In this document: in pieces, positions 15,823-54,473 of the stretch
Position numbering within the stretch: position 1 is the stretch's first letter
How the letters are laid out: each line of letters begins with the position of its first letter
Assembly (NCBI GenBank): GCA_964497125.1
Contig: CAZCDU010000010.1
Span: forward strand, 2,888 to 66,887
Direction: 5' to 3'
Length of the DNA: 64,000 nucleotides
Source of the DNA: an uncultured Victivallales bacterium
GTDB taxonomy: Bacteria > Verrucomicrobiota > Kiritimatiellia > UBA8416
Notes under the pieces: model-generated
Seen by the model: only the letters and a program-made list of their open reading frames with translations
Databases searched by the model: none
Told to the model about the DNA's origin: nothing
Position numbers and translations under genes: made by a program

Positions 15823-15907
15823 ATCGGTGCCTCATCTGAGGCTGGTGACGAGATCTCGTTTCGCCGCTCACCACCAGCCAGCGCTCAGAACGCCCTGTAC
15901 CGCGTCC

Positions 15908-16747: not shown

Positions 16748-16766
16748 AATATACAGGTCCTTTCAC

Positions 16767-19298: not shown

Positions 19299-19382
19299 CT
19301 TGCCTTCTCCTTGTGTTTCAGCGTCCGCGCACGCATGTGGCGTCCTGTGCCCCGGAATGCCCGTTCCCAGCCGTCAGTCAAT

Positions 19383-21367: not shown

Positions 21368-21443
21368 GCGAACCTCCAACATCATATTTGCAGTGACAAC
21401 ACCCTGTCCTATCGTGTCCAATTGTCGCATGGGCTTGGCAAGT

Positions 21444-21500
21444 CCGCATCCGCCTGAAATGCGGGTTTTCTGACAAAACCGCATCCGTACAAAATACGGA
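21444..21500. terminator. cluster of overlapping GC-rich hairpins between narL-like gene and downstream operon (terminator/attenuator candidate)
   Basis: CCGCAT-ccgcctgaa-ATGCGG, ATGCGGGTTTT-ctgac-AAAACCGCAT and CCGTA-caaaa-TACGG share arms, so they form mutually exclusive structures. Confidence 0.4.
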
Positions 21501-21566
21501 CAGGGAGGGAAGGAGGGGGGGGCGGCAACAGGGGCGCACGTGTGGCGGCTAGCAGGAGCGACGGCT

Positions 21567-26608: not shown

Positions 26609-27412
26609 CTACCGGCTTTGCCGGTAGGCCTGCAGATACGAGTTACTGTAGATGGTCTTGTCCAGTAGCACCTCGGCCGTAATCATCTCGTTCATCAGCA
26701 GCTCGTCCAGCGGATCATGAATAGAGGCGTCGAGCCCATTCGCAATAGCCATTACAAGAAATGCACGGTTGATCAGACCGCGTTCCGTTGCGCCCTGGCT
26801 CAGATTGCTGAGACCGATGACGACATGCGGCGCGGGATCGGAGAGCATCTTGAACTGGGCGATCGTTTCCAGCACCATCCCCGGAGCTTTCTGGTCGCAG
26901 TTGACGGGCAATATAATGGGGTCGAGGTAGAGGCTGTCGATAGGGACGTCGCGCTCAACCGCGGCACCCAGGGCCCGCATGGCAATCTCGAGTTTCGCGT
27001 CGGTTGTCGCGGCCACGCCGTTCTCATCAATCGAGAGACACACAATATCGGCGTCGAACTCCTTCGCCAGGTCCATGAAACCTTCCAGTTTATCCTGCTG
27101 CCCCGTGGTGGAATTGATGATCATCTTGCCACCCTTGCAACCCGCCTCCACGCCCACACGCATGGTAGAAAGCGCCGGATTATCCACGGCCAGCGGTTTG
27201 TCGGTGACCTCTCGGGTGGCCTCAACAAGCCAGCGCATCACGTCGGCACGCTCCGCCTTCGGCACGCGTGTTCCTACATTGATGTCAAGGGCATCCGCGC
27301 CGGCCTCGAGCTGCTTCTCGGCCATCGACTGCACAGGCTTCACATCCTTGTTGGCAATGGCATCCCCAATATCCGTGAACATTCCGTTAATGCGTTCCCC
27401 TATCACAAACAT
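26609..27412 (-). CDS. acsE: methyltetrahydrofolate:corrinoid/iron-sulfur protein methyltransferase
   Basis: 267-aa pterin-binding (DHPS-like) TIM barrel. 'MFVIGERINGMF' start is typical of AcsE/MeTr. Last gene of the Wood-Ljungdahl carbonyl-branch operon. Confidence 0.85.
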   Translation of the reverse strand: MFVIGERINGMFTDIGDAIANKDVKPVQSMAEKQLEAGADALDINVGTRVPKAERADVMRWLVEATREVTDKPLAVDNPALSTMRVGVEAGCKGGKMIINSTTGQQDKLEGFMDLAKEFDADIVCLSIDENGVAATTDAKLEIAMRALGAAVERDVPIDSLYLDPIILPVNCDQKAPGMVLETIAQFKMLSDPAPHVVIGLSNLSQGATERGLINRAFLVMAIANGLDASIHDPLDELLMNEMITAEVLLDKTIYSNSYLQAYRQSR

Positions 27413-27435
27413 GTCGATCGTTCCTTTCTCTGTTT

Positions 27436-28401
27436 TCAGGCTGTAAGTTTGTCAATGTGATTACGAATGGCTCTGACGGCATCAGGATGACGCATGACCA
27501 GGATATCGCTTCCGGCCTGCAACAGCACGCTGGCAGTTGTGAACTCCCAGAAGACACCCCGTGTCTGCTCGTCACCCCAGTCGGGCTGCTCTGCTTGTGT
27601 GGCCTTGGATTCCTTGGCCCGCCAGGCCTCCTGTCCAACCATGCAGATGACCGGCTGGGACATCATCTTATCGCCACTCAGGGCGGCCACCCGTCCACGC
27701 TCCTGGATCGAGTAGGTGTATTCAATGCCGTACCCGAGTGCGCCGGTCGTCTGGTACATGACCACTCGATCCAGCGGAAAGCCCATCTCAGACACAAGGA
27801 TATTGACCTGTTTGGCAATGTTGATGTCAATCGGGCTCAACCCTACCAGCGAATGCCCGTCCGCCAAGCATGAGGCCACGAGCGTCTTGTAGTTGTCCTC
27901 CTTGGCCGTACCAAAAAGGCACTTCTCGCCGGCCGCCGCCTGGCTGCATTTTGGAAGCACCTCGTTGTCCTTCTCGTCATGATCGCTTCCCCAGACCACT
28001 ACCGGAACATCAACGGCCTCCAGCACGGCCTTTACCGTTGCTGCCGCCTCATCCGGTGAACGATCACCGAAATCGGGGTGCGTGCCCACCAGGTTCAGAC
28101 AGATCAGCTCGGCCCCATGCTGCTCGACACAAGCCCTGGCCCATTCGGCCGGCGACTTCACCACGTCCCCGAGGGCGTCCAGGAGGGGTGCCGGCCATTC
28201 AGCTGGCTCACAGTCAAAGATCTCCATGGCTACCGCCGGCTTCCTGGGAGTGTCTCCCTCGCTATTGAAGAACGGCAATGACTTGGCGCCACCCACGGTA
28301 ACAACCGACCCGCGCGTGCCGCCATCTTCAGGCGTCGCCCCAATCGTCAATTCGTGTACCGCGCCCGCCCACTTTTCTTGTGCATCACTAATCATGCTCA
28401 T
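27436..28401 (-). CDS. acsD: corrinoid iron-sulfur protein small subunit
   Basis: 321-aa TIM-barrel-type CFeSP delta subunit lacking the N-terminal FeS motif. Adjacent to acsE and acsF. Confidence 0.8.
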   Translation of the reverse strand: MSMISDAQEKWAGAVHELTIGATPEDGGTRGSVVTVGGAKSLPFFNSEGDTPRKPAVAMEIFDCEPAEWPAPLLDALGDVVKSPAEWARACVEQHGAELICLNLVGTHPDFGDRSPDEAAATVKAVLEAVDVPVVVWGSDHDEKDNEVLPKCSQAAAGEKCLFGTAKEDNYKTLVASCLADGHSLVGLSPIDINIAKQVNILVSEMGFPLDRVVMYQTTGALGYGIEYTYSIQERGRVAALSGDKMMSQPVICMVGQEAWRAKESKATQAEQPDWGDEQTRGVFWEFTTASVLLQAGSDILVMRHPDAVRAIRNHIDKLTA

Positions 28402-29174
28402 TACTCTGACTCCTCTAGAAGTTTGGACACCAAGTCATCCACCACGCTCGCCGCCTTGGAATCCGCCGTTAAATCAAGAAGTGATTTCGACTCCATCTCG
28501 CTATCAAGGACCATTGAATCGGTCGGAACCGTTGCAATCACCTCGAGCCCCGTCTCGTCGAATAGCGCCCTTAGCTCGGCCGGCGGATCCTGGTCACACC
28601 CATTCAACACCAGGTAGGTTTTGCCGATATCGAGACTCAGGCTTTTGATGAGCTCCAGAATCCGCATCGTCGTCCGGGCCCCGATGACGGTCGGCTGGCA
28701 AACCACCAGTAGCACCTCCACGCTCCCGTTAGAGCGGCGACTGAGGTGCTCGAGTCCTGCCTCATTATCAATCACCACGGCCTTGTATTGCTGGCCAATC
28801 TTGTCCAGGCAGGAACGCAACAGGTTATTGATGTAGCAATAACAGTCCGGCCCTTCCTGCCGCCCCATCGTGATCAGGTCAAAGCCCACGGCCTCGGTAA
28901 TCTCTTCATTGATCAGGCGTTCAATCCACTCGGTCTTCGAAATGCCCGCCGGCTTCTTGTCCGGCTCGGCACGCAATTGCTCACGAAGCTCGCCGATGGT
29001 TTCTTCGGGCACAACACCCAGCCGCTCGTGAAGACAGCTATTCGGATCCGCATCAACGGCCAATAGCGGCTTCAGTCCATGGGTCCTGACCAGGCTACGA
29101 CACAACAGGGCAGCAATGGTTGTCTTCCCCGTGCCTCCTTTACCCGCAATTGCAATTCTCATTGGCATCGACAT
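28401..29174 (-). CDS. acsF: CooC/AcsF-type Ni-insertion ATPase (MinD/ParA fold)
   Basis: Deviant Walker A 'AIAGKGGTGKTT' and a 'CYC'-like metal-binding motif 'GPDCYCYIN'. Length 257 aa. Confidence 0.8.
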   Translation of the reverse strand: MSMPMRIAIAGKGGTGKTTIAALLCRSLVRTHGLKPLLAVDADPNSCLHERLGVVPEETIGELREQLRAEPDKKPAGISKTEWIERLINEEITEAVGFDLITMGRQEGPDCYCYINNLLRSCLDKIGQQYKAVVIDNEAGLEHLSRRSNGSVEVLLVVCQPTVIGARTTMRILELIKSLSLDIGKTYLVLNGCDQDPPAELRALFDETGLEVIATVPTDSMVLDSEMESKSLLDLTADSKAASVVDDLVSKLLEESE

Positions 29175-31110
29175 TCTCCCTTTCTATGTTTTGGACTGAT
29201 GGAAATTTCTCAATGCACGTGTGGGGCAGGAAAAGACATGAACTGTACTCATTCATGTAACGGTGGTACGTGCTCAGCTCAATGTGCATCATGATGGCGG
29301 CGATCTTCTCGGTGACGTAGCGAAAAGCGCCGGCCGACAGCAGGCTCATCTTGGCGCCCTGGACGGCGCCATTCCCGACGAAATGAAAACACTCATGATC
29401 CATGTCCGGCAACAGGCCGATGTTGATGGCGCAACGGATATCCAGGTAGTTGCCGAAGCCGCCGGCAATATAGACGTTCTTTACATCGTCGAATGACAGG
29501 CCCATGTAGTCCAACAGGCACTCTGCGCCCATGTAGATCGAGCCCTTGGTGTGAATCAGGTTGTTGATGTCCGCCTCGGAGAGAAAGATGTCGCGACCGA
29601 GGGCGGTCTCCTCACCGGAAAACAGGACAAACTCCGTATCGCCACTCTCGCTGACACGCGTACGCGAACCACACATCTCTTTAACAAACCGCCCCCGGCG
29701 ATCGATACACCCAACCCGCAGCAGTTCTCCCACGGCGTCAATCAGGCCTGACCCGCAAAACGCCAGTGGCTTGCCATCCCCCACCACGCCACACGAGACA
29801 ATGCGTCCCCCCTTGCCAAGCCGAATACGCTCGATGGCGCCTTCGGTGGCCCGCATCCCGCAACTGATACCGCCCCCTTCAAACGCCGGCCCGGCGGAGG
29901 CGGAACAGCATACCAACCAGTCCGAATTCCCGAGTACCAGTTCGCCATTCGTCCCCAAATCAATCAACAGGGAGAGATCCTCCGATGCCATCATGCCCGA
30001 CACGAGCACATCCGCTACAACGTCACCGCCCACATAACTGGCAACTGACGGCAACACAGCCAGCAGCCCGCGCTTGTGAATGCCGATGCCGACTTCCGCC
30101 GCACGGATCACGGGAGGTGCCGTTGCACATGGCACGTACGGGTCGCGCCGTATATGGGCCGGGTCCAAGCCATAGAGAAGGTGGATCATGGTGGTGTTGC
30201 CGGCCCCAACGATGTAGCCTACATCGCTAAGCTTGCCCCCCGCGTCCATCACGAGGGCCGCGATCAGATCATTGATGTCGTCAACCAGCAGCTCTCGCAG
30301 ACCGCGCCGCCGCTCTGCAGAGGAGGCGCACATGATGCGGGCGATGACATCGTCACCAAAGCAGGCCTGCGAATTATACTTGGCCTTGGTGGACAGGGTC
30401 TCAGAGGTGACCAGGTTCACCAGGTGGGCCACAACCGTGGTCGTGCCGATATCGACGGCTACACCCAGGTTGGTGGTCGAGGTGTCGCCCGGCTCGATTT
30501 CGACAACTTCCGTGGTCCCGTTGCGCCACCCCAACACAGCCGTCACACACCAGTTGTTCTCACGTAACAAGTTCGGAAGGCGGCGCAGGACCGAGAGTCC
30601 CGTTTGCATGATGGGGATATCGTGCTGTAGTCGAATTTCCCGGTAGAGGCGCTCTTCATCCGACAGGTTGTCATCAACCGTCGGCGGCGGCAACTGCAAG
30701 GCCAGCTTCATGCATAGCGGCTGGTAAACGAAAGGGGCAACAGCACCATCCGCGCTGGGCATAACCCGCCCGAAGCGAATGGCATCTTCCGAGGCCAGTT
30801 GCGGCACACCGCCGATTCGTGACTCGAGGGGTACCTCGACGACGGCGTCACCATCGACATACGTCTGGCACGCAAGGGCCATGCCGCGCTGAATCTCGCG
30901 GCGAGTCAGGAACATCGTCGGTTGGGCCGTGACCTTACCCGACTTCACCGCCACGCGACATTTACCGCACACGCCCTCCCCACCACATATCGTATTGATA
31001 TGGATCCCCGCAGCCTTGGCTACCTCTAACAGGCTTTTGCCGCGCGCCGCGGGGATCGTCTTCTTTTCGGGAAGGAACGTGATCGAATAGGTTTTCATGC
31101 AGACGGCCAA
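29140..31110 (-). CDS. reductive activator of corrinoid protein (RACo/AcsV-like): N-terminal 2Fe-2S ferredoxin plus ASKHA-fold ATPase
   Basis: N-terminal plant-type ferredoxin motif 'CGGEGVCGKCRV...C'. The remaining ~550 aa have an ASKHA/DUF4445-like sequence ('DIGTTTV', 'DLGTNGE'). Located between acsC and acsF. Confidence 0.75.
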   Translation of the reverse strand: MAVCMKTYSITFLPEKKTIPAARGKSLLEVAKAAGIHINTICGGEGVCGKCRVAVKSGKVTAQPTMFLTRREIQRGMALACQTYVDGDAVVEVPLESRIGGVPQLASEDAIRFGRVMPSADGAVAPFVYQPLCMKLALQLPPPTVDDNLSDEERLYREIRLQHDIPIMQTGLSVLRRLPNLLRENNWCVTAVLGWRNGTTEVVEIEPGDTSTTNLGVAVDIGTTTVVAHLVNLVTSETLSTKAKYNSQACFGDDVIARIMCASSAERRRGLRELLVDDINDLIAALVMDAGGKLSDVGYIVGAGNTTMIHLLYGLDPAHIRRDPYVPCATAPPVIRAAEVGIGIHKRGLLAVLPSVASYVGGDVVADVLVSGMMASEDLSLLIDLGTNGELVLGNSDWLVCCSASAGPAFEGGGISCGMRATEGAIERIRLGKGGRIVSCGVVGDGKPLAFCGSGLIDAVGELLRVGCIDRRGRFVKEMCGSRTRVSESGDTEFVLFSGEETALGRDIFLSEADINNLIHTKGSIYMGAECLLDYMGLSFDDVKNVYIAGGFGNYLDIRCAINIGLLPDMDHECFHFVGNGAVQGAKMSLLSAGAFRYVTEKIAAIMMHIELSTYHRYMNEYSSCLFLPHTCIEKFPSVQNIERENVDANENCNCG

Positions 31111-32435
31111 ACGGTCTTTAGGTATTTCGAGATGCCGCTGGCCTCACGTGGGCCCACCAGGACATCCCAACCAGAGTCTTCCTTCACGGCACCGCTCATC
31201 ACGGAGACGTAGCCCGGAATGATCACCTTCTTGTGTGACACTTTGCTGGTCACGGTATCGGAGTTGAGGAATTCGGCAACGTCGGCCGACGTCAACTTGT
31301 CCGCGGCAAATGCCGTCAAGACCGAGGTGCCCTCCGTGTCGATGACGCCAATATAGGCAGGCACGCGACTCGCTTCGACCTCCCCTTCGACCGTGTAATA
31401 GGTCAGAGAGAAGTTTGTCGTAAGCAGCAGGGGTGAGTCCGCCGTAACGGCTCCCACCTCGTAGAGCTTTGGCTCCACCTGGATCGGCTTGCGTGGATCC
31501 GTGTAGATGTTCTGGCTGACGGTCAGAATCGGCAAGATATGCTCGGGTTTGTACAGACGCGTCAGGACCACGCCGGCATACTTAGCCACGTAGGTGCTGC
31601 ACTCGCCGATGTTGCCGAACACGTCATCATCCGAACAGGTCACCAGGCATGGATACCCAAGGCTACGCAACCCCTTCTTGATCGCAAGCTGCCGCGCAGC
31701 CGTGAGGCTGGCCAGCGAATCAACAATGCCACCGGCCGAAACGTCAAGAACCAGCTCTTCGACACCAGCCGCCTTGGCCTTCTCGGTCAGCTCAGCCAGG
31801 GATTCGAGGCTGTCGCCCGAAACCACCAGCGGACATTTTTTCTCCGCTGCCAGCGCGGCAAATGCGTCGCATGTGTCTGCGGAAGCCCCGTGAACCAAGG
31901 GGCGATCAGCGGCACAGACATCCAGCGCCGCCCCCATATTGGCGGCATCCGTGGCGATCAGCACCAGGGGCAAACCGAGTCCCTGGGCGCTCTCGACCGC
32001 GGCGACAAAGCGATCTTTGTCACCGCTGGCATTCTCAACCCCCACCACGTTGACGCCGATGTCGGTTCCCACGCGGTGGAACTGCAGCTTACCAATCGCA
32101 GCCACGTGTTCCGCCAGCGCCTCGGCATCAAGGTCGTCCGGGATGATGGAGCCGATCCCCGGGGGGTGGTAGAATGACTCGTCATGCCGGAACATGACCG
32201 TTTCATTACCGACTTCCAGTTTCTTAGGCCCACCCCCGATTGTTACGAGCTGAATGGGCGGGGCCGAGGATCCTTCCAGCTCCGCCTTGGACTCATCGCT
32301 GACGTCCGGACAGTCGTCCAGGCTCGCCTGCTTCTGTGCCAGCTTCATGGAGAAGGCCAGACAGGTTGGACTTCCACACTTCTTGCAGTTTGTTTTCGGG
32401 AGCAGTTTAAAGATATCGAGTGCTTTGAGCGCCAT
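31095..32435 (-). CDS. acsC: corrinoid iron-sulfur protein large subunit
   Basis: N-terminal [4Fe-4S] motif 'CKKCGSPTCLAFSMKLA', then a TIM barrel and a C-terminal B12-binding-like domain. Length 446 aa. Confidence 0.85.
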   Translation of the reverse strand: MALKALDIFKLLPKTNCKKCGSPTCLAFSMKLAQKQASLDDCPDVSDESKAELEGSSAPPIQLVTIGGGPKKLEVGNETVMFRHDESFYHPPGIGSIIPDDLDAEALAEHVAAIGKLQFHRVGTDIGVNVVGVENASGDKDRFVAAVESAQGLGLPLVLIATDAANMGAALDVCAADRPLVHGASADTCDAFAALAAEKKCPLVVSGDSLESLAELTEKAKAAGVEELVLDVSAGGIVDSLASLTAARQLAIKKGLRSLGYPCLVTCSDDDVFGNIGECSTYVAKYAGVVLTRLYKPEHILPILTVSQNIYTDPRKPIQVEPKLYEVGAVTADSPLLLTTNFSLTYYTVEGEVEASRVPAYIGVIDTEGTSVLTAFAADKLTSADVAEFLNSDTVTSKVSHKKVIIPGYVSVMSGAVKEDSGWDVLVGPREASGISKYLKTVWPSA

Positions 32436-32528
32436 GATGATCTCCGTTTTGGTTGCGTCCGTGCGTCGCTCATCCCAGGAGCGCGATTCGGACGAAATGC
32501 AGTTCTATCGCCTGGGCCGATATCCTTC

Positions 32529-34706
32529 CTAGAATACAGCTTCCATTTCGAGCGCCGGATGACCGACCTTCGTCAGGAATTCCACGAGTTCCTCGCCGGT
32601 GGTCGCCACCGTCTCATCCGCGATTTTGTCCAACAGATCCGGCACACCTTCCTCCTCGGCACGCTGGACAAATCGCTCGGCAAAGTACTCCTTCAACTCT
32701 TTCGGCATCCAGACCAGGCGCTTCAGGCCACCGTCACCGGAGATGAACTTCCGGCTGAGGGCGTACAACCGCCCCACCCCAAGGAACCCAGGCGTCTGGT
32801 TGCCGCCACCCACACACCCGGCCAGCGTTGAGAACTTCATGCCACAGGGCGTGTCCCCAGGAAATTCCCGGTTCACGAGCATGAATCCGTTGGCTTCGGG
32901 AACCAATGCGAGGACGCACTCAAAACAGCCGCACGAGGTCATCGGCGATTGGATCACCGAGTAGATGCTGACATTGTCAATCGTACGGTTGGTGTTGTTG
33001 TACACGAACTCGTTAATGCCTTCCCAAATCCCCGCAGATTCGTCGATGAGCTTGCCCTTGGCGATGGGCTGATTCCCACCCGCGGGATCAATCTGGTACG
33101 CCGCCTTGCCATCAAGCCAGTTGTAGGCGCCGCAAAGCCCCAGCCGTTCAGGACTGATCACGCAGATGTGGTTCGGGGCAAACGACTGGCACAGCGAACA
33201 GGAATAGAACTCCTCGACGCTTTCGTCCGTCATATCGGAGACCCGCTCATCGCGTTCATCGTATCCCGGCCTCACGGTGGCCAGCATTTCCTTAACCTTC
33301 GCGGGCTCCGAATAGATGGTCACCTGCACCTTGTCGACAATCTTACCGTACACATCGTGAACACGTGCATGCAGGATGTTCCCGAAGTGCTTCAGCCGGA
33401 ATCCGGCTTTGAAGGCATCTTTGCTGATGCGCACCCAGATCAGGTCACGCTGCCCCATGTGGAACGCCCCCATCGCGTAGTTGATGAAGTGGTGCACCTG
33501 CCGCTCAATGATGGATTCGAAATCCTTCTGCATCTGGCGACCGGCAACTTCGATGTAGAGGCCGAGGGCCATGTCGCCCCCGAGCTCAACGCTATCGGCA
33601 TCCGGTCCGATGAGTTCAACTTTGCCATCCTCGATCTCGTCCATTTCCCGCATGTGCACATACTCGAAGGCATCCGAATACTTGCCGCCGAATTGCAGTT
33701 GCATATCTTCCTTGCGGACGCGCTCGCCTTCAAAGGCCGCAGAGAAAGAGACGGGGATATCAATCTCGGACACCGTCACCTTGACCCCGCGCACTTCAAT
33801 ACAACGCGGTACAATATTCATGTGATCCAGCTCGCGTACCACGTGCTCATAGGTGCAAATGCCGGTTGGGAGGATCTCGGGAATCGCGGTGTCGGCAATG
33901 GCGGGGAACCCCATATTGATGGCGCCGGCAGCCGTGGCATACTTCTGGTCATCGACCTCGCCCAGCGCCACGGCGAATGCAAACACGCGGTTCTTGCAGT
34001 ACTCCAGGCATTCCCGCGCCTGGCCGGGCTTCAGGCCGCCAAACGTGAGGGCGCCACGCATGGCCCAGTTAAGAGGATAAATGGTGCTGAGCGTATCGCG
34101 GCCAAAGGGAACAATGTAGCTATCCCATCCCAGTTCGACTTTCGCCTCAACCAGCTGGTCGATGATGCTGACACCATTCGATGACGAGCCGGCAAAGACC
34201 ATGATCTGCCGCTTCTGGAATTCGCGCACAATATGGACCGCCGTTTCGGTATCCGGTGCTGCGCCCAGTATGGCAGCAAAGCCAGGCATGCGCCCGTCAA
34301 CCAACTGAATACCAAGCGTGCGAAGAATCGTATCGCTGAAGAAGCCGTTGCAGCCATCCTGCGGTTCCTGTTCATGCAGGTAGCGCAGAACCATGATGAT
34401 CTCTTCGGCCAGCAACGTGGCAATGCCGGCGTCCAGCGCATTGCCCAGGTAGGGGAACCAGAGATCATCGGCAGGTACCTCGCCCAACAGCTCCCGCATA
34501 TGCTCAAGGATCGGTTTGAGCCCACCGACAGTTGAGACATTCAGGCCCATCAGGGCATGGGACATCGGCAGATAGTAGGCGGTATCGGGGAACCCGATCG
34601 CCGTGTCCTCGCTCTTCTCCTCCCGAGCACGCTCAAACATGGCTTCGGCCTGCCCCACGATATCGTGCGCGCCACGAATGGCTGCGCTGGCAATGATTTT
34701 GGACAT
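32529..34706 (-). CDS. acsB: acetyl-CoA synthase (CO-methylating), A-cluster subunit
   Basis: 725 aa with the A-cluster motif '...SCGCFEC...' (Cys-Gly-Cys bridging the Ni sites) and conserved ACS domains. Confidence 0.9.
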   Translation of the reverse strand: MSKIIASAAIRGAHDIVGQAEAMFERAREEKSEDTAIGFPDTAYYLPMSHALMGLNVSTVGGLKPILEHMRELLGEVPADDLWFPYLGNALDAGIATLLAEEIIMVLRYLHEQEPQDGCNGFFSDTILRTLGIQLVDGRMPGFAAILGAAPDTETAVHIVREFQKRQIMVFAGSSSNGVSIIDQLVEAKVELGWDSYIVPFGRDTLSTIYPLNWAMRGALTFGGLKPGQARECLEYCKNRVFAFAVALGEVDDQKYATAAGAINMGFPAIADTAIPEILPTGICTYEHVVRELDHMNIVPRCIEVRGVKVTVSEIDIPVSFSAAFEGERVRKEDMQLQFGGKYSDAFEYVHMREMDEIEDGKVELIGPDADSVELGGDMALGLYIEVAGRQMQKDFESIIERQVHHFINYAMGAFHMGQRDLIWVRISKDAFKAGFRLKHFGNILHARVHDVYGKIVDKVQVTIYSEPAKVKEMLATVRPGYDERDERVSDMTDESVEEFYSCSLCQSFAPNHICVISPERLGLCGAYNWLDGKAAYQIDPAGGNQPIAKGKLIDESAGIWEGINEFVYNNTNRTIDNVSIYSVIQSPMTSCGCFECVLALVPEANGFMLVNREFPGDTPCGMKFSTLAGCVGGGNQTPGFLGVGRLYALSRKFISGDGGLKRLVWMPKELKEYFAERFVQRAEEEGVPDLLDKIADETVATTGEELVEFLTKVGHPALEMEAVF

Positions 34707-34760
34707 AATCTTTCCTCCCTAAAACGGATCGCCCTCGGTCGTTGGTCGTTGTGAATGGAC

Positions 34761-36791
34761 TTAAGGGCGCTTTCCGCCACAGTGATGACTCGGGGGCAAT
34801 CCCCCAAATTCGTCCTTGTCCGCCGGCTGCGCAACCATGTTCGCACGATGCGTTGCCGGCTCCTTCTCTTCCGCCTTCAGAAACGGTTCGTCGTACATCA
34901 GCGGACGCAGTTTCAGAGCGGCTCGCTTCGTCTCCATATGTTCCATCATCAGGCGCGCAGCCTTCACCGGATCCTCTTCAAAGCTGAACTTTCCTCCGGT
35001 AATGGCCTCGACATCTTCCGTGAGGAAGCGGGTTACATCTTCACTGCCCTCGATGCGCATGACCGGCGCGTAATTCACGAAGGCGCCCGAGGCCACGCAG
35101 TAGAACCCGATGGCAATCGCCTTCTCGCACATGGCCTCCGGCGCGGCGCCGGCGATGGGAAGATCCGACAGTTTCTCGCCGAGTCCGCCTTCCTTAATCA
35201 TCTCACACAGCGCCACAAGAATACGGCTGTTGTCCACGCACGATCCGAAGTGCAGAACAGGCGGAATACCCACCGCCTCACAGATCTCCTGCAGCCCCTT
35301 GCCGGCATACTCCTTTGCCGCTTCCGGTTGCAGAAGCCCAACCTTGGCGCAGGCGGTAGCCGCACACCCGGTCATGATCACCAGCACATCGTGTTTGAGA
35401 AACTCCTTCACCATCTTGAGGTGACTGTCGTCCTGTGTCTTCTTGACCGTGTTGCACCCGATCACGGCCGCCACGCCACGTAGCCGGCCCGAAATGATGC
35501 CATCATTCAGGGGGCGGAAGCTCGATCGGTACCTGCCCCCCAGGTGGGTGAAGGTGTTGGCGACGGTAAACCCGGCCACCAGGTCGTTCTTGTGTTCCGG
35601 AATATCAACGGGCCCGCGGTTCGGGTAGTTGTCGATAGCGCGTCGCACGATATCCTTGGCGATATCAAAGGCCTTGTCTTCCTCGAACTGTACATGTTCG
35701 GCACCGGGGATATGCGCTTTCTTGCTCGTCGTGACGACCTTGGTGTGAAAGCGGGAGGCGTGCTCGATCACAGCGGGAATGATACACTGCACGTCAACCA
35801 GCATCATGTCCACGGCACCCGTTGCAATGGCCAGTTCCTGGTGCAGGAAATTGCCGACAACCGGGGCGCCTTGGCGCATCAGGATCTCGTTCGCGGTACA
35901 ACAGATGCCGCCGACCAGGATGCCTTCCGCCCCCTTGCTCTTGGCCAGTTCGAGAAGCTCGGGATCGCGACTGGCGGCCACGACCATCTCCGAGAGCGTC
36001 GGCTCATGCCCATGCACAACGATATTGACCTCGTTCGACTTGAGAACGCCCAGATTCACCTCGCTGCGCACCGGTTCGGGAACACCGAAAAGGATATCAC
36101 CTATGTCCGTGGCCAGCATGGCGCCGGCCCAGCCGTCCCCCATCGAGGTGCGCAGACCATGCTTCAAAATGTTGACGTAGTCGGCATCCACACCCTCATG
36201 CGTGCGGTGCAGGGTCTCTACAATCTCATGTTCCACCCCGACCGGGATCAGGTCATGCTTGCGCCAGTTCTTCACGGTCGCTTCCGGTGCCCGGGCCGCC
36301 GGGTAGTGGAGCTCCCCATCAAGGTTATTGAATTGAGCCAGGGCCGCGAGCGCGAGCTCCTCGGCGATCTCCTCCTTGGTCCGGTCCTGGGTCTCGATAT
36401 CCCACTCTTTAGCGATCTCATGCAGACGACGCTCGCTTTTGATCTGGTAACCCTGGGCCTCGCCACGAGCGGTCATGAGCAAGGTCTTTACGATGTCATG
36501 TCCGTGATCGGCATGGGCTGCGGTACCCGCGGCCACCTGGCGAATCAGGTGTCGCGATGCCACGGTTGCAGCATTGGCGCCACAGATTCCGCGCGGGTTC
36601 TTCTTTGAAATTCGACAGGGACCCATTTCACAGATTCGGCAACAGACGCCCTTTTCCCCGAAGGGACAACGCTTGCCCTGTGCCTCGTGCCGGTCATAGG
36701 CGGTTCCAATCTCACCCTCGCCGGCTTTCGCCATCATGGCTTCAGCCGCCGGATCAACCGTTCTTTTCGATTCCGTACTCATAACGTGCAT
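34761..36791 (-). CDS. acsA: anaerobic Ni,Fe carbon monoxide dehydrogenase catalytic subunit
   Basis: 676 aa. N-terminal B/D-cluster cysteines 'CPFGEKGVCCRICEMGPCR' and C-cluster motifs typical of CooS/AcsA. Confidence 0.9.
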   Translation of the reverse strand: MHVMSTESKRTVDPAAEAMMAKAGEGEIGTAYDRHEAQGKRCPFGEKGVCCRICEMGPCRISKKNPRGICGANAATVASRHLIRQVAAGTAAHADHGHDIVKTLLMTARGEAQGYQIKSERRLHEIAKEWDIETQDRTKEEIAEELALAALAQFNNLDGELHYPAARAPEATVKNWRKHDLIPVGVEHEIVETLHRTHEGVDADYVNILKHGLRTSMGDGWAGAMLATDIGDILFGVPEPVRSEVNLGVLKSNEVNIVVHGHEPTLSEMVVAASRDPELLELAKSKGAEGILVGGICCTANEILMRQGAPVVGNFLHQELAIATGAVDMMLVDVQCIIPAVIEHASRFHTKVVTTSKKAHIPGAEHVQFEEDKAFDIAKDIVRRAIDNYPNRGPVDIPEHKNDLVAGFTVANTFTHLGGRYRSSFRPLNDGIISGRLRGVAAVIGCNTVKKTQDDSHLKMVKEFLKHDVLVIMTGCAATACAKVGLLQPEAAKEYAGKGLQEICEAVGIPPVLHFGSCVDNSRILVALCEMIKEGGLGEKLSDLPIAGAAPEAMCEKAIAIGFYCVASGAFVNYAPVMRIEGSEDVTRFLTEDVEAITGGKFSFEEDPVKAARLMMEHMETKRAALKLRPLMYDEPFLKAEEKEPATHRANMVAQPADKDEFGGLPPSHHCGGKRP

Positions 36792-36797
36792 CCACTC

Positions 36798-37583
36798 CTA
36801 ACTCTGGCTCTGCTCCGCCGTTTTGGTCTCCAGAAGACTCACACACCCGCAAATAACATCCTGCACTACATCACTCGCCGAAAAAGGAGGCACCCCATTC
36901 CTTTCAGCATCGCGAATCGAATCCTCAAACGGCAACATCGCCACGAAATCAATGCCCGGCAACGCCTCCCGCATGAAAGCCTCATCCCGGTCCGAACGCA
37001 CCATGTTCCCAATGGTCACAAGCTTGGTGAGGCCAATCTCGCCGGCCATCTGCTTGATGCGCAGGGCCGTTTCGATGCTTCTGCGGCCAGGATTCACGAC
37101 CACAACCAACGCATCAACGCTGCCAACAGTCCCGCGCCCCAGATGTTCAACGCCGGCCTCCATATCGAGCACCAAGTCGGAGTTCGGATTCAGGAGGACG
37201 TGGGAAACCAGCGCACGCAACAGAGTGTTTTCGGGACAGTAGCACCCCGTCCCACCCTTCTTGACGGCACCGGCCACCAGGACCCTGACACCATCGATGT
37301 CAACGCCGTAACTGTCGGGAATATCGGAGACATCGGGATTCAACCGGAACATGCCCCCTGTCGTGCCGGGCTTAACCCCCGTCCGCTCTTCAATCAGGCT
37401 CTTGAGCTCGACAAGGGGACGAATGCGATCCCAACCCGCATATCCCAGGCAGGCAGCCAGATTGGAGTCAGGGTCGGCATCAATACAGAAGACCTCGCGG
37501 CCACGGTTGTGAAGGGCTCGCGCCAGCAACGCCGATACCGTCGTCTTGCCAACACCGCCTTTTCCAGTGACCGCCAGCTTCAT
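36798..37583 (-). CDS. cooC: CooC-type CODH Ni-insertion ATPase
   Basis: Deviant Walker A 'AVTGKGGVGKTT' and 'GCYC' metal motif. First gene of the acs operon. Confidence 0.85.
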   Translation of the reverse strand: MKLAVTGKGGVGKTTVSALLARALHNRGREVFCIDADPDSNLAACLGYAGWDRIRPLVELKSLIEERTGVKPGTTGGMFRLNPDVSDIPDSYGVDIDGVRVLVAGAVKKGGTGCYCPENTLLRALVSHVLLNPNSDLVLDMEAGVEHLGRGTVGSVDALVVVVNPGRRSIETALRIKQMAGEIGLTKLVTIGNMVRSDRDEAFMREALPGIDFVAMLPFEDSIRDAERNGVPPFSASDVVQDVICGCVSLLETKTAEQSQS

Positions 37584-37792
37584 ACGCGCCCTACTCCAGC
37601 CTCGTCACCGCTAATGTGGGCATAGGCCTCAGACAGCCAACCGTCATGCCTGCAACAGCAACGATCGTGGCGGCCCGCTCGAAAACCGCACTGGACACTG
37701 ATGCATTGAGTGACGTAATATTTCAACTCGCCCATAAAGGAATATATTCCACCACAACGTGGTGGTCAAGAAGTTTGTCACCGCCCGGGGTG

Positions 37793-37827
37793 CCCCCCTT
37801 TGCCCCCCCCGGTACCAGGGGGGGGGG
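37793..37827. promoter_or_regulatory. homopolymer palindrome C6..C8-GGTACCA-G10 immediately 5' of the regulator start codon
   Basis: C-run 37793-37798, C8 at 37803-37810, loop GGTACCA, G10 at 37818-37827, then ATG at 37830. It could fold as an 8-bp all-GC hairpin and overlaps any ribosome-binding site. Confidence 0.5.
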
Positions 37828-37829
37828 AC

Positions 37830-38306
37830 ATGGAGAATGCAAGTAGTATGAGTCATTCAGATCATGACGGAGAGAAGCCGGCCGGCAAGAAGGCAGAGCC
37901 TGATTCGCGCCACGCCGATACAATCAAGCGGATCCGCACAATGCAGGGGCGAACGCAAGCCGAACTAGCTAATGCTCTCGGCATTTCGGAGAAGGCGGTT
38001 CAGAGCTATGAGCAGGGCTGGCGCACGGTACCGACACGCGTTATGATCCAGTTACTCGTACTGCTGGCCCTGTACCGCAAGCAGACCCTCGATGATATCC
38101 CGTGCTGGGAAATACGGAAATGCCCAACAGACCAACGTGAGCGATGCGCCAGTTTCACTGTCGGTCGCGGGCAATTCTGCTGGTTCATCGGCGACAAAGA
38201 CTGTCGCCCGCCTACATCGAAGACGTCCGACGCCATCCTTCCGTGCATGGACTGCCCGGTCATACAGCGCTTGCTGACGGGCCGCCGAGAAGATACTGCC
38301 GATTGA
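37830..38306 (+). CDS. XRE-family HTH transcriptional regulator with C-terminal 8-Cys domain
   Basis: HTH 'RTQAELANALGISEKAVQSYEQG' followed by 'CWEIRKC...C...FCW...C...CMDC'. ATG chosen at 'MENASSM'. The six-frame ORF starts at an upstream TTG inside the poly-C tract. Confidence 0.55.
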   Translation: MENASSMSHSDHDGEKPAGKKAEPDSRHADTIKRIRTMQGRTQAELANALGISEKAVQSYEQGWRTVPTRVMIQLLVLLALYRKQTLDDIPCWEIRKCPTDQRERCASFTVGRGQFCWFIGDKDCRPPTSKTSDAILPCMDCPVIQRLLTGRREDTAD

Positions 38307-38372
38307 CGCCCACCGTCACTCAGTGGTAGGCTAGCACACGAGGAAAAGCGCACCGCGAAGGAGGAGTCAAGA

Positions 38373-38957
38373 ATGGGGTTTAAGCGATGTCCAGGGAGTT
38401 CGACGTTTGCGCAACCCAAGATTGATTTGGTGAAGTGCCCCGGCTGTGGCGAAGACGTAGAGGTCTGGAGCGATGAGCCAACCGGGCAGTGCACGAATTG
38501 CGGTCGGACAGCGACGCGCTCATCGACACAGTCCTGCATGGACTGGTGTAAACATGCTCAAGAGTGCCTTGGCGACGAGAAGTACAAACAGTACCAGGAC
38601 ATGAAATCCGCCATACGCAAGGAGGCCCTTGTCAAGGCAACGGCGGACCAATACCAATGGCGCAAACACCAACTGGGGTTAGCCTGGGACGCGCTATCGC
38701 GGGCAGAACAGCTGCTGAGCAGCCGCCCCGAAGCCGATCCCAACGTCGTCATCGCCGCCGTCGTCCTGCGCCTCGCGCATCAGCACGCACCCCAGACAGC
38801 CGACGCCGACCGCCTCGCGGTGGCACGGACCATTCTCAAGGGGTTGGACTATCCGGACGATTTCGTGCAGCAGGTTGGCGGATTGCTCGAATTGCCGGAA
38901 CCGCGAGACGAGAACGCAACCAACGTAGCAACCGTCCTCGACGCGCTGGCCCACTAG
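38373..38957 (+). CDS. hypothetical zinc-ribbon protein
   Basis: 194 aa with an N-terminal 'CPGCG...CTNCG' zinc ribbon and a further Cys pair, then a helical C-terminal region. No family assignment. Confidence 0.4.
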   Translation: MGFKRCPGSSTFAQPKIDLVKCPGCGEDVEVWSDEPTGQCTNCGRTATRSSTQSCMDWCKHAQECLGDEKYKQYQDMKSAIRKEALVKATADQYQWRKHQLGLAWDALSRAEQLLSSRPEADPNVVIAAVVLRLAHQHAPQTADADRLAVARTILKGLDYPDDFVQQVGGLLELPEPRDENATNVATVLDALAH

Positions 38958-39099
38958 CCTGAAGCTTGGCCGTCTTCTTCAGGTCCTTGCTCCCTCGCTC
39001 GCCAGAGCGTGGATGAGCAAGAATGGAGCATGTGAGAGACCAAGAGAGGAGCAGGCGCTCTCCTTTTGGTCTATCTATCCACTCTTCTTGCGCGATCCA

Positions 39100-39330
39100 C
39101 CGTCTGGCGGCGGAGGCTACAAGCGTTTCACCCCTGCTTAATCCGAGTCCACTCGGCCGGGGGCGAAACTAACCTGAAACTTAACCTGTTTCCTAGTGTT
39201 TTAGACTCTTCCGTAGGGCGGGAAATCTTCCCGCCCACTCCCTTCTGTCGAACGTCCAGGAAGGGTTCCCGGCCTACATAAGAGCGTTTCACCCCTGAAT
39301 AGTCCGAGTCCTCTCGGCGGCTTCGTTGAC
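39100..39330. repeat. intergenic repeat cluster C (two direct ~36-nt units, inverted relative to clusters A/B)
   Basis: 'GCGTTTCACCCCTGCTTAATCCGAGTCCACTCGGCC' (39120s) and 'GCGTTTCACCCCTGAATAGTCCGAGTCCTCTCGGCGG' (39280s), 159 bp apart. Also a 'GGGCGGGAAATCTTCCCGCCC' palindrome and 'CTGAAACTTAAC'. Confidence 0.7.
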
Positions 39331-39428
39331 CTCCGACTCCCCTCCCTCCCTTTAGCCTTGCCGAACGTCAACCCCCACCGGTAAAGTGGTTGACGTTTGA
39401 CTTATTGCCGCCGAAGAAAGGGAACCCG

Positions 39429-40439
39429 ATGATTGATGCCATTATAGAGCAGGCCTATGCCGTATTGGACGGCACGCCGCTGGATCGCGAGACCGCACTG
39501 AAGCTTTGCGCCCTCGAGGGAGAAGCCATCCTGGATGTCGTCTCGCTCGCCAACAAGGTCCGCAATCGCCACGCCCGGGAGGGCCACGTTTGCACCATCA
39601 TGAACGCCAAATCAGGCGCGTGTGGCGAAAACTGCCGCTTCTGCGCGCAGTCTGCGCATCATGATGCGGAGATTGAAGTCTATCCGCTGCAGACCGTTGA
39701 GTCCATGGTTGCCGAGGCCCGTACGGCCTACGAGACCGGAGTGCGTAGCTTTGGACTCGTCACCAGCGGCACGGGATTCCAGGAGGTCGACGAGAGCTTC
39801 CAGACGATTCTCGATGGTATCGATGCCATCCACGAGGCCCTGCCGGACATGAACGTGTGTGCCTCGCTGGGCATTCTGAGCGAGACCACCGCCACGGAAC
39901 TCGCAAAGCATGGGATTCAGCACTACAACATCAACCTGCAGACCGATCCCGCCCGCTATGGCGAGCTGGTCGCCACCACGCACGGCATCGACGCGCGGAT
40001 CGAAACGGTGCGCCGTCTCCAGGCCGTCGGCATCGGCGTGTGTTGCGGCGGCATCCTGGGACTGGGCGAGAGCATGCAGGACCGTGTCTCGATGGCCTAT
40101 GCGCTGAAGGACCTGGACGTCGACGTGATTCCGCTCAACGTGCTCGTCCCCATTGCCGAGACACCGTTGGCCACATCGCCCAGCATTGAGCCTGCGGAAG
40201 CGGCGCTGACGTTTGCCCTGTTCCGGCTCATCAACCCGACCAAGATCATCAAGTTCGCCGCCGGCCGCGAAAGCCGTATGAGCGATTTCCAGGGGTTACT
40301 GATGTTGGCAGGAGTCAACGGGATGCTGGTCGGCGGTTACCTAACCACCCGCGGCCGTGACGTCGATGATGATGGCGTGTTCTCACAGCAGCTTCAGGCG
40401 TTCAGCAATGGGACCGATCCTCTATGGAAACCAAGTTGA
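39429..40439 (+). CDS. bioB: biotin synthase (radical SAM)
   Basis: 'CGENCRFC' radical-SAM motif and BioB 2Fe-2S ligand context. Start set at 'MIDAIIEQ'. First gene of the bio operon. Confidence 0.85.
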
Positions 40440-49396: not shown

Positions 49397-52300
49397 CTAA
49401 TCGTCATCAATGCTGAGGCGATAGAAAACACTCTTCGCATCACATATGCCGGTCGTATAGACATTGACTGGCGGCGTGGCCGGGATCGCCGAGTTGGTGA
49501 GCGTGAACTCACCTGAGACCAGGTTCGTGCTGATCCACAGCGAGTAGAACTTGCCGGTCGCGCTCAACCACGAGAACACACAGCCTGAAGTCTGCCCTAC
49601 ATCGGTCAGCGCAAAGACGGATTCCGCATCAGTCGGATCGGTGCCGGCGCGCCACTCGTCATAGTTCGTCGCCCCGTCCTCATCCCAATCCTCATCCGCC
49701 CCACCGTCCACGGCATTGGTGTTCCCAAAATAGTCGATCTCCCAACTATCCGGCATCCCGTCGCCATCGTGGTCGTCGAGCACCTGTTCTGCTGAGCCCG
49801 GCGATGGGCTTGCATCCGCAACCCAGTTGGTAGCGTCGTTCGGGTAGGCGGCCACATCGACACGTGCCAGCGATGATCCAAGTCCATCAGCCGCCAGCGG
49901 CCAGGGCGCGGCATCGTTGTAGTCGACGAGCTCGACGACAATATAGGGAACTTCTCCCGTCAGTGCCTCCGGTTCACCCGGCCGGGTCAGCGTCAGATCC
50001 TCGCCATCATTGTTGAGCGCGCCCTCGTATGGACCGAGTACTGTGACACCTGCATCCACCGTGTAGTAGCTGCGGAACGCCGCCTCATTCGTTTCAGTAA
50101 CTAACAGGCATTCACCGGCGGAAAGCACAATGCCGGTCGGGAAGCTGAACGTCACCGCACCTTCAAGCTTCCAGGTGTTGGTGGGATTAGCCAAGTCGTA
50201 GAGCGGGGCATTCGAAGCGCTACGGTTGCAGATCTCGACGAACTCAAAGCCATTGCTGTCAGCCGGATGATAGACGAACTCGGTAATGACCACCGAATCG
50301 ACCAGCGGATAGGCGTTGCTTGCGCCCGAGGTCTGCGAGCTCTGCGCCGTGAAGTCGGCCGTACCATCGCTCTTGATGTGTCGCCCAAACGTCACATCGC
50401 GCTCAGCCGCGCCGAAAACCGCCTCAACCCGGTAACCGGTCAGTTCCCCACCCTCGCTTGAAGAGAGGTAGACGCCCTCACCCAGCTCACTGAGAGCAAA
50501 GCCGTTCACCCCTGCCGCGGCGGCGCCGAAATGATCATGCTCGGTCAAGACCTGGTACCCGCCGGGGGCAATGGCTGCAATTCCACTGAGCACAACCTTT
50601 GTCAGGTTGGTATCGTCGTCACTCAGGTACCACCCATTGATGTCAATCGTGTTGGTAGAGTTGTTGAACAGCTCAATCCAATCACCTGGATCATCCTGAT
50701 CCTGGTGCGTCAGCACTTCATTGATGACTAGATCATCAGGATCAAGGAACGCGAACGGCCCGCTACCGGGGGTGCCGCCAACATACTTACTTGGACGCCA
50801 CGCTGTGCTTTCGTTCCAGGCATTGGTGTCGGCAGCGGGATCAATCAACGTCAGCGAATACCCATCACCATCCGTGATCGCGTACCAATCGTCATATTCA
50901 AAATCAAGGATCGTGCGGCCGAGACCATCAATCAACGCAACCTGCTCCCCGGAATTGGCAAGGGCCGCATCTTGAATGTAGAACTGTCCATAATACTCAC
51001 CTGCGATGTTGATGTTTGCCCAATTGGTGTAGCGTGCGGCGAAGGCATCCAGATCGTTCACAAGCACAACGTACTCACCGGGATCAAGCGTCGTCACATC
51101 ACCATCCGTGAAGTCGAAACGGACACCCTCGCTGAATGCGGTTCCGGCCAGGCCGACCGTGCCCGTGCCGGTGTTGAGCAGTTCAATAAACTCAAACCCC
51201 GATGCTGCATAGTTCGTCTCCGCTCCCGACACCGGGTCAATCGGATGATACATGACCTCGGTGACGCGCAGGGGCGAGACCTCGCTCAGCACGAAGATGG
51301 CCTCTGTCAACGCGCTCCACGTTCCGCCGCTCAGAACACGGGCCTTCACCTGCGTCGATCGCGTCAGCGTGACGGCATTGCTATAGGCCGCACCCGCGAC
51401 ACTACCGCCAACCGCGCGGGGATCAGAACCGTCGGTCGTATAGTAGATCTGGCTGTCGCCGCTGATGACAAGCGCGTATCCAGACGTGAGGCTGCCACCG
51501 TGCTGGCTGAATGACGGGGCATCCACGGCGGGGTACCACCCCACGCTCTCAAGCTGGCCAACGACCACATCTCTGCGGGTGTTGGGTGATGCCTGCAGGT
51601 AGTCGTCGAGAATGCTATTGACCGCGGGCAGCCAGTCGTCGTCCCTGGTTCGCGGCGTCGCTGTGATGTAGTCCCCCCACCGGGCGGACTCGGCGATGAT
51701 CGCCAGCTCCATCTCTGTCTTGCGATCGTTCAGAAGTGCTACCGCGTTGTCGGGAGTCAGGACGCCATCATTGAAAAGATGGCGGTGAACGCGGTCGGCA
51801 AAACGCAGCTTGTACTCATCGTTGTCGACGAGTTGGAGATGCAGCCACCACGGGTTAAAGCACTCCATGGTACCCAGCGTCGAGCTGGCAGCGACCGTTG
51901 CCGAACGCGTGCTGACGATATCGTAGTCAACCTCCTCTGTTAAGTGATAGCCGAGGGCATGTTCCGCATCGTGTGCGATGAACTTGAACCCCTCCGGGCT
52001 CACCCGGTTGTACAGCGCGAACAAGTTGTTCGGTATCGATCCGGTGTTCGGCGGCCCCAGTGGCGAATCGCGATTGCCCACGTAGAACACCGTCAGCATG
52101 TAATCAGCCAGGTTATCCACATCCAACAACTGCGTGTAGCTCTCGTTCCTTGACCCATCGGCATTCATGCCCTGGATAAAGAAGTAGTCGACGTTGGCAA
52201 CGACCCCGGAATTGGCGGCCGACCACAGCGACTGGTAGTCATCGATTACGCCGTCAGTTGCCTCTATCTGCCCCCTGTTATCACCGGCCTTCACAATATC

Positions 52301-54310: not shown

Positions 54311-54473
54311 CGGCCAATCCTACATCTAGTGCCCGCTCTGGCGCAACGGATCAATCATGCTCTCAGGCACAATCACATTGCACATACACGGGGCGTCTAG
54401 CTGGTGTTACGTAGGACGCGAGAGAATCTTGCAAAGGCTATCGCCGATTCCACCTTTCCTGGGCCGACAGGAC

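Follow-up and report, generated by a model that had tools for sequence, protein, structure and literature searches.

A one-component regulator gene is located at positions 37830-38306 of the 64,000-nt stretch of DNA from an uncultured Victivallales bacterium that was analyzed here (the window, numbered from its first letter), and it encodes a protein with an XRE-type helix-turn-helix (HTH) and a C-terminal cysteine-rich domain. The gene lies head-to-head with the Wood-Ljungdahl (acetyl-CoA) operon that encodes carbon monoxide dehydrogenase/acetyl-CoA synthase (CODH/ACS). Based on the analysis of its homologs, their neighboring genes and the sequence between the divergent genes, the regulator is a strong candidate for a dedicated switch of the acetyl-CoA pathway in anaerobic Kiritimatiellia and Lentisphaerae relatives. 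The features on which this proposal is built are the following.

37830-38306, plus strand: gene of the XRE-HTH/two-CW one-component regulator (open reading frame (ORF) of 158 aa with homologs; same call on other contigs).
37905-38090, plus strand: XRE/Cro-C1 HTH domain, aa 26-87 (HTH_3 match, AlphaFold2 (AF2) helices, PDB profile search).
38100-38270, plus strand: two-CW domain, aa 91-147, 7 Cys and 2 Trp, predicted signal-input module (NF045718, phmmer, motif alignment).
37749-37765, no strand assigned: operator O1, CCACCAC-AAC-GTGGTGG, a conserved palindrome (family consensus CTACCAC-N3-GTGGTAG).
37741-37769, minus strand: predicted sigma70-type promoter of cooC-acs, -35 TTGACC (37764-37769), 17-nt spacer, -10 TATATT (37741-37746) (promoter scan).
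37692-37721, plus strand: predicted regulator promoter TGGACA-N18-TAATAT (scan with 9 of 12 matches, partly by eye; the least secure element of the model).
26609-37583, minus strand: predicted target operon with cooC, acsA (CODH), acsB, acsC, RACo, a second cooC-like ATPase gene, acsD and acsE (Pfam, NCBIfam).
36798-37583, minus strand: cooC (Pfam/NCBIfam).
34761-36791, minus strand: gene of the CODH catalytic subunit (TIGR01702, 657 bits).

The regulator ORF starts with ATG and, according to the ORF list, has a product of 158 aa. It is a genuine gene and not a chance ORF, since 313 homologs were found at E<=1e-3, many of them 60-80% identical over ~120 residues; the regulator and the gene that follows it were also found as an identical pair on independent metagenome assemblies. 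A TTG start at 37800 (168 aa) is unlikely, because a poly-C/G tract would then be translated and the N-termini of the homologs are unconserved there. The Pfam model HTH_3 (PF01381) matched aa 32-76 with 33.2 bits against a membership cutoff of 23, which bears out the XRE-type HTH named in an earlier note on this DNA, and HTH_31 likewise scored above its threshold (29.2 against 27). In the full-length AF2 model, the predicted local distance difference test (pLDDT) score of the HTH was 86-96 (aa 31-80), with helices at aa 26-39, 43-50, 54-61 and 69-87, and a PDB profile search with the regulator matched XRE-type chains only (434 Cro, 434 repressor, C proteins and HigA). A 26-sequence alignment of the homologs revealed that the recognition helix, SEKAVQSYEQGWR, was invariant, the invariant residues of the recognition-helix region being S53, K55, Q58-Q62, W64 and R65.

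The divergence from cooC-acsA across ~250 bp, which the earlier note had described, was confirmed, with 246 bp (37584-37829) between the two genes. Homologous loci were collected by a scan with one genome per species, which yielded 80 loci on contigs of metagenome-assembled genomes (MAGs) or metagenomes. The hosts of members at least 45% identical to the regulator were Kiritimatiellia, Victivallales/Lentisphaerae and Verrucomicrobiota MAGs, together with one Latescibacterota MAG. In 17 close loci, cooC-CODH(-acsB-acsC-RACo...) was found upstream on the opposite strand. Where cooC and the regulator were 2-4 kb apart, genes for methylene-tetrahydrofolate reductase (PF02219 and PF12225) and formate-tetrahydrofolate ligase (PF01268) were present on the acs strand, and fhs was immediately divergent from the regulator in L011, L016 and L023. 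When close loci with enough upstream flank were considered, the regulator was head-to-head with a Wood-Ljungdahl operon (starting with fhs, metF or cooC) in 20 of 24; the linkage of homologs to acs or coo genes, for which a co-occurrence check had been proposed beforehand as a test of a dedicated role, was thus observed.

As a separate observation, a compact cluster, fhs-metF(+DUF5981)-cooC-acsA-acsB-acsC-RACo-cooC-acsD, was seen in the upstream flanks of L001-L028, from MAGs of Kiritimatiellia, Victivallales and Verrucomicrobiota. This fhs-metF-cooC-acs cluster of the Planctomycetes-Verrucomicrobia-Chlamydiae (PVC) group comprises the full carbonyl branch and methyl-branch genes. A literature search on Kiritimatiellae and the Wood-Ljungdahl pathway returned nothing relevant.

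The palindrome CTACCAC-N3-GTGGTAG was common to the upstream regions of the orthologs and was found at the same place in the orthologous loci. The window copy O1, CCACCACAACGTGGTGG (17 bp, 37749-37765), contains the sole exact ACCAC-N3-GTGGT core within the 64-kb window. When the 80 loci were searched, 22 exact cores were observed in the upstream regions (<=450 nt upstream, 35 kb in all) against 0.21 expected, and 7 were found in the 1.15 Mb outside these regions. At least 4 of those 7 were sites directly downstream of the regulator gene, of the type named O2 below, before the partner gene that follows it or, in L031, before NiFe-hydrogenase genes. With one mismatch or none, the upstream palindrome was present in 21 of the 26 close loci and in 23 of the 52 distant ones. 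As judged from this conservation, the operator is family-wide, distant members included, which is consistent with the invariant recognition helix. A dedicated regulatory role of the protein is likely, given the conserved operator inside the predicted acs promoter, and it is very probable that the regulator controls the Wood-Ljungdahl operon through CTACCAC-N3-GTGGTAG.

The same data bear on the proposal that a generic XRE protein, either an antitoxin or the repressor of a mobile element, stands beside the acs operon by chance. This proposal would fit the weak matches, all below threshold, to models of antitoxins (MqsA, HipB and HigA) and of a phage repressor (RstR). However, these matches covered the HTH only and were far under the cutoffs (TIGR03830, 31.4 against 61.8 and restricted to profile positions 64-118; MqsA_antitoxin, 20.5 against 30), and no toxin-like neighbor was found, the neighbors being cooC and a Zn-ribbon/HD-like gene. 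Moreover, ~20 independent MAGs of the PVC group share the Wood-Ljungdahl synteny, and the operator is placed inside the promoter of the pathway. A toxin-antitoxin or prophage repressor was ruled out on these grounds, and a chance placement beside the acs operon is considered extremely improbable.

The predicted cooC-acs promoter agreed with the consensus at 10 of 12 positions in the promoter scan, and the O1 core (37751-37763) occupies its spacer and touches the -35 hexamer. Of the 22 other loci examined that bear the palindrome, 14 have, like the window, a -35 hexamer next to the core in the same register. The design shared by these loci is a TTGACx or TTGCAT hexamer beside the core and a TAnnnT box 17-18 nt downstream; only 0.3% of random 61-nt segments from the same loci scored 9 or more. 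Given the predicted plus-strand promoter, O1 would be at about +22 to +38 of the regulator transcript, and a CTGGAC box followed by a -10-like box recurs upstream of O1 in the orthologous loci. The cooC-acs and regulator promoters therefore appear, at the level of predicted hexamers, to face each other across the operator region. Taken together, the near-consensus hexamers, the optimal spacing and the position of the operator in the spacer predict repression by occlusion and negative autoregulation, and no activator would be needed because the -35 and -10 are good and the spacer is 17-18 nt long. We consider it probable that the regulator acts as a repressor.

It was also noted that a box upstream of the palindrome (~55-60 nt), GATGCTGGAC in many loci and GCACTGGACA in the window (37686-37700), is shared by L001, L004, L006, L009, L011 and L020. 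Its conservation exceeds the needs of a -35 hexamer alone, so a second factor might bind there as well.

Alternatively, the regulator might activate the Wood-Ljungdahl promoter, or both activate and repress it, for instance by distorting the spacer as MerR does. MerR-type activators have their operator in the promoter spacer, as is the case for O1, and positive control would be plausible for a pathway needed under anoxia. However, the spacers found here are 17-18 nt long, compared with the 19-20 nt typical of MerR-dependent promoters, and the -35 hexamers (TTGACC, TTGACT, TTGCAT) are near consensus. XRE/Cro-type proteins at such a position classically repress, and in L028 the site is located downstream of the -10-like box, beside the cooC start codon. 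Activation is accordingly regarded as quite improbable, and repression is retained as the predicted action of the regulator.

The cysteine-rich domain contains seven cysteines (C92, C98, C106, C117, C125, C139 and C142) in the spacing C-W-x4-C-x7-C-x10-C-W-x6-C-x13-C-x2-C. Eight cysteines had been counted in the earlier note, the own motif string of which also holds seven, and its x10, x7 and x14 gaps were wrong by 1-3 residues. Conservation of the cysteines in homologs, which had been set beforehand as a test of the sensor idea, was observed: in the 26-sequence alignment, six Cys and both Trp following Cys were invariant and C125 was present in at least 90% of the sequences. In a domain-only alignment of 30 sequences, which included members fused to methyl-accepting chemotaxis proteins (MCPs) or kinases, C8, W9, C14, C22, C33, W34, C41, C55 and C58 were invariant. 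The NCBIfam model NF045718 (two-CW domain) matched aa 91-147 with 24.1 bits (E 3.6e-5, profile positions 2-76 of 80), and 23 of the 26 orthologs matched it at E<=0.01, the best at 3.2e-7. When the 74-aa window domain was used in a HMMER scan of 1.84 billion representative proteins, 93 relatives were retrieved. Most were HTH fusions of 120-200 aa, some were stand-alone proteins of 70-100 aa, and several were cytoplasmic MCPs or PAS-histidine kinases with the domain at one end. A phmmer search with the window domain found P0135, P0162, P0186, P0193, P0210 and P0147 (E 6e-9 to 8e-4), and the MCP- or kinase-fused relatives retrieved in this way scored 48-93 bits on NF045718; the MCP P0135 was the one with E 6e-9 to the window domain and 93 bits to NF045718.

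Because none of the seven Cys and two Trp varies across these architectures, the C-terminal domain of the regulator is, on its sequence pattern, a divergent but genuine two-CW domain, and it is predicted to be a signal-input module because the same domain is fused to MCP signaling domains and PAS-histidine kinases. NF045718 is a named, sequence-defined domain without reported function, structure or ligand. Literature searches on the two-CW domain/NF045718, XRE with Fe-S, cysteine-rich domains of chemoreceptors, CODH with XRE, and CW motifs returned nothing covering the regulator family. Consequently, the earlier statement that no characterized family could be assigned is amended: the domain is assignable to two-CW, which is itself functionally uncharacterized. 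The predicted structure is a small helical domain without a recognizable Fe-S fold; a Foldseek search of the PDB with the domain-only model gave no match, and nothing at E<=10 was retrieved from the PDB when a profile of the domain-only alignment was searched. On balance, a metal- or thiol-based sensor appears to be the better description of the two-CW domain.

The gene that follows the regulator, referred to as the partner gene, the elements in front of it and a tract upstream of the regulator are the following.

38313-38329, no strand assigned: operator O2 (degenerate), CCGTCAC-TCA-GTGGTAG, between the regulator stop codon and the partner gene (15-mer with 3 mismatches).
38303-38332, plus strand: predicted partner-gene promoter TTGACG-N18-TAGGCT, with O2 in the spacer and -10 (by eye).
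38373-38957, plus strand: Zn-ribbon/HD-like partner gene, 194 aa (N-terminal 8-Cys Zn-ribbon-like region, degenerate HD domain).
37791-37827, plus strand: inverted poly-C/poly-G runs, C6, C8, GGTACCA and G10, directly upstream of the regulator ATG (repeat finder).

The partner gene was found directly after the regulator in 13 loci and nearby in 2 more. Its product has 45 homologs, the longer of which match Pfam HD. C22, C25, C40, C43, C55, C59 and C65 are invariant in the partner protein and C6 is nearly so, the Zn-ribbon-like cysteines being followed by C-x3-C-x5-C; the H-D and HHHH residues of the HD domain are lost in the subfamily of the window and retained in few homologs (P0235, P0257, L010). 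Palindromes at the O2 position, with 0-2 core mismatches, were found in L001, L002, L003, L004, L007, L011, L013, L014, L018 and L031. The design of the partner promoter, TTGAC(C/G)-N5-palindrome-TAnnnT, recurs in L001, L003, L007 and L018, and the -10 of this promoter in the window was too weak to be reported by the promoter scan.

A serious rival of the sensor reading is that the two-CW domain binds structural zinc only and serves in folding or dimerization, so that the protein would be a plain autoregulated repressor or would be controlled by a partner, such as the Zn-ribbon/HD-like protein. Seven cysteines including a CxxC pair are compatible with Zn sites, the partner gene with its own operator is conserved after the regulator in the 13 loci, and the predicted domain is small and helical and lacks an Fe-S fold that could be recognized. 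However, the terminal position of the domain on cytoplasmic chemoreceptors and sensor kinases, together with its stand-alone occurrence, is the behavior of an input domain and not of a dimerization scaffold; seven cysteines are an odd number for two Zn(Cys)4 sites; and the distant subfamilies do not have the partner gene. A purely structural role is therefore judged unlikely, and a sensory role of the two-CW domain is retained.

The neighbors of more distant members bear on the signal. L031:10001-12983, from a Kiritimatiellae MAG, carries a member 35% identical to the regulator, downstream of which come a perfect palindrome, CTACCACGTTGTGGTAC, and, after it, the genes of the small and large NiFe-hydrogenase subunits. 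About 20 Desulfobulbaceae loci (L041, L047, L052-L055, L059 and L063-L080) keep the order regulator, mnmA, MtaB/MiaB-like radical-SAM gene, cinA, recA, with a half-degenerate palindrome ~60 nt upstream of the regulator. Cultured carriers of this type of locus are Desulfobulbus alkaliphilus DSM 24258, D. rhabdoformis DSM 8777 and Desulfogranum marinum DSM 2058. Other members adjoin nadA (L048) or a GltD-like Fe-S flavoprotein/oxidoreductase gene (L022). Family contexts are those of Fe-S-, Ni- or sulfur-dependent enzymes, and the named hosts belong to lineages known mainly as anaerobes. In one Victivallales MAG, the L019 copy of the regulator is acs-linked and L020 is a second copy. It was observed that this second copy lies amid mnmA and the genes for O-acetylhomoserine sulfhydrylase, cysteine synthase (cysK) and a ThiF/MoeB-like protein (thiF) (L020:1698-6996), and the different neighborhoods suggest that the two copies may be paralogs with different regulons.

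The two-CW domain might instead be specific for CO or nickel, with the same regulator and operator, which would make the protein a functional analog of CooA/RcoM or NikR. In the window and in the orthologous loci, the regulator adjoins CODH/ACS and cooC, which encodes an Ni-insertion ATPase, and cysteine-rich sites are able to bind Ni or a CO-reactive Fe-S cluster. However, members are also found beside mnmA-mtaB-cinA-recA in the Desulfobulbaceae loci, beside nadA and beside cysteine-metabolism genes, the two-CW domain also occurs on chemoreceptors and kinases of diverse anaerobes, and no His-rich Ni motif was conserved in the family or domain alignments. Specificity for CO or nickel is distinctly unlikely. 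Sensing of redox state, O2 or Fe-S supply is favored, because the distant members adjoin genes of Fe-S, Ni or sulfur enzymes in mainly anaerobic lineages, and we tentatively propose redox, O2 or Fe-S status as the signal in place of CO or Ni. Redox, CO and Ni had all been suggested in the earlier note; redox is kept as the favored one, whereas a signal specific to CO or Ni fits poorly with the same HTH, domain and operator standing beside CO-unrelated genes.

The whole is best explained, with somewhat better than even confidence, by an autoregulated pathway repressor, the DNA binding of which is set by a metal or thiol center. In the proposed mechanism, the XRE HTH would bind the 17-bp palindrome CTACCAC-N3-GTGGTAG, most likely as a dimer. 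At O1, the bound regulator would block RNA polymerase at the cooC-acsABCD promoter, so that the pathway would be repressed, and the position of O1 in the early transcribed region of the regulator gene would lead to autorepression; at O2, the partner gene would be repressed. The seven invariant cysteines of the two-CW domain would hold an Fe-S cluster (most likely) or a Zn/thiol center, and the state of this center (assembled or lost, reduced or oxidized) would switch DNA binding. The expression of an Fe-S- and Ni-rich, oxygen-sensitive pathway might thereby be coupled to redox or Fe-S status, both the signal and its sign being inferred.

Several results weigh against this explanation. The profile search proposed in the earlier note did return a two-CW match, but its 24.1 bits are under the NCBI cutoff of 35. 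Structure prediction, also proposed there, gave a domain that was modeled moderately (pLDDT 67.8, domain-only, 82-sequence alignment) and with pLDDT below 50 in the full-length AF2 model, and no PDB fold was matched. Four close loci, L010, L020, L021 and L022, were without adjoining Wood-Ljungdahl genes, and in L024 the palindrome was found in degenerate form only, ~675 nt upstream. The palindrome is not diagnostic by itself, because exact 17-bp copies arise by chance in large metagenome collections; its weight lies in the positional association. In a metagenome-wide scan for distal regulon members, 80 loci with the exact palindrome were examined; the regulator and Wood-Ljungdahl proteins were absent from all of them, and these matches are due to chance. 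The promoter hexamers are consensus matches in a phylum with poorly studied promoters, and the regulator and O2 promoters were placed partly by eye. The direction of the switch can be read in two ways from the gene contexts: a holo-repressor would fit the recA/cinA context, and an apo-repressor would fit the acs and hydrogenase contexts.

In the poly-C/G tract upstream of the regulator, the order at 37791-37827 is TGCCCCCC-TT-TGCCCCCCCC-GGTACCA-G10. Similar C- and G-runs were present in most high-GC orthologous loci and missing from lower-GC ones. The length of the G-run differed between assemblies, with G10 in the window, L081 and L084 and G11 in L083; L082, at a contig end, differs too. The folding of the predicted 5' untranslated region with these runs was no more stable than that of shuffled sequence (z = -0.85, not significant), and an Rfam scan of 37400-39500 found no RNA family at E<=1. 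The tract could sequester the Shine-Dalgarno sequence, could be slippage-prone, or could reflect assembly noise. Downstream of the partner gene, the 432 nt up to bioB (38958-39389) contain one terminator-like hairpin, at 39048-39061, and no plausibly coding ORF of at least 60 aa. A role of the protein as regulator of the downstream bio operon was ruled out, since the bio adjacency is unconserved (L022 only, on the opposite strand) and no operator was found before bioB.

Elsewhere in the window, the minus-strand region 12747-24681 encodes MoaA, a porin, a NarJ-like chaperone, a 4Fe-4S subunit, a molybdopterin oxidoreductase (843 aa) and a NapC/NirT-type multihaem cytochrome, as well as two response regulators, a HAMP histidine kinase and a phosphonate-type binding protein, and it is probably a regulated respiratory reductase locus. 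Two very large tandem ORFs (1637 aa and 1333 aa) are located at 49397-58475, also on the minus strand.

Little is understood of how the Wood-Ljungdahl pathway is regulated, and nearly all studies of the question have dealt with Firmicute acetogens. The present analysis supplies a candidate regulator, a precise operator sequence, a target promoter and a predicted repression, conserved across ~20 uncultured PVC-group genomes, and it gives a first functional handle on two-CW, a module spread through the chemoreceptors, kinases and regulators of anaerobes. If two-CW were an Fe-S or thiol sensor, it would be a new input domain for bacterial signal transduction. It is possible, though rather doubtful at this stage, that two-CW represents a new class of Cys-ligated, probably Fe-S, sensory module in the transcription factors, chemoreceptors and histidine kinases of anaerobes, the XRE-fused form of which couples CODH/ACS expression to Fe-S, redox or gas (CO/O2) status via a defined operator. 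If that were true, no dedicated transcriptional switch of the Wood-Ljungdahl pathway would have been described outside Firmicutes before the XRE-fused form of Kiritimatiellia, Lentisphaerae and Victivallales. Distant members with the same operator are also present in the cultured strains of Desulfobulbus and Desulfogranum (L055, L077, L080), so further work is not tied to uncultured organisms.

Compared with known systems, the regulator shares its general position with CooA and RcoM, in that its gene stands beside a CODH gene cluster which it is presumed to control. CooA, of the CRP/FNR family, and RcoM, of the haem-PAS/LytTR type, are both haem proteins and act as activators; in the window, by contrast, repression is predicted from where the operator lies. 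No cNMP_binding or Crp match was found in the regulator, which matched XRE-type HTH models only, and no PAS or LytTR match was found in Pfam; the earlier view that its architecture differs from both proteins is thus upheld. Among other transcription factors proposed for the control of Wood-Ljungdahl genes, Rex senses NADH/NAD+. Another is the TetR-family protein CAETHG_0459, described in PMC6873888 as an activator of these genes in Firmicute acetogens. Both belong to other protein families and have other motifs, and neither is of the architecture, or from the phyla, of the regulator.

The HTH fold, the palindromic operator overlapping the promoter and the predicted autoregulation are features of Cro/CI and of the C proteins of restriction-modification systems. 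However, these proteins are without a sensor domain, whereas the window protein has a C-terminal cysteine-rich module of 60 aa, and its predicted target is a central metabolic operon. With the two-CW proteins of NF045718 it shares the pattern C-W-x4-C-x7-C-x10-C-W-x6-C-x13-16-C-x2-C, but its output is an XRE HTH and theirs is an MCP or kinase module. The Fe-S sensors of the Rrf2 (IscR/NsrR/RsrR), FNR, WhiB-like and SoxR types are small dimeric DNA-binding proteins in which the state of a Cys-ligated cluster switches operator binding, often with autoregulation, and the proposed working principle of the regulator would be similar. No Pfam or NCBIfam match at E<=1 placed it in the Rrf2, FNR, WhiB or SoxR families, the folds of which are winged-helix, CRP or MerR compared with XRE here, and these sensors use three or four Cys, compared with the seven conserved in the regulator. 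A one-component repressor with a cysteine-rich sensor is of a general kind that is already known, whereas the sensor domain, the operator and the Wood-Ljungdahl link of this regulator appear to be undescribed so far. In its proposed action, the regulator would be comparable to NsrR, RsrR and similar Fe-S repressors, but with a DNA-binding chassis of the Cro/C-protein type.

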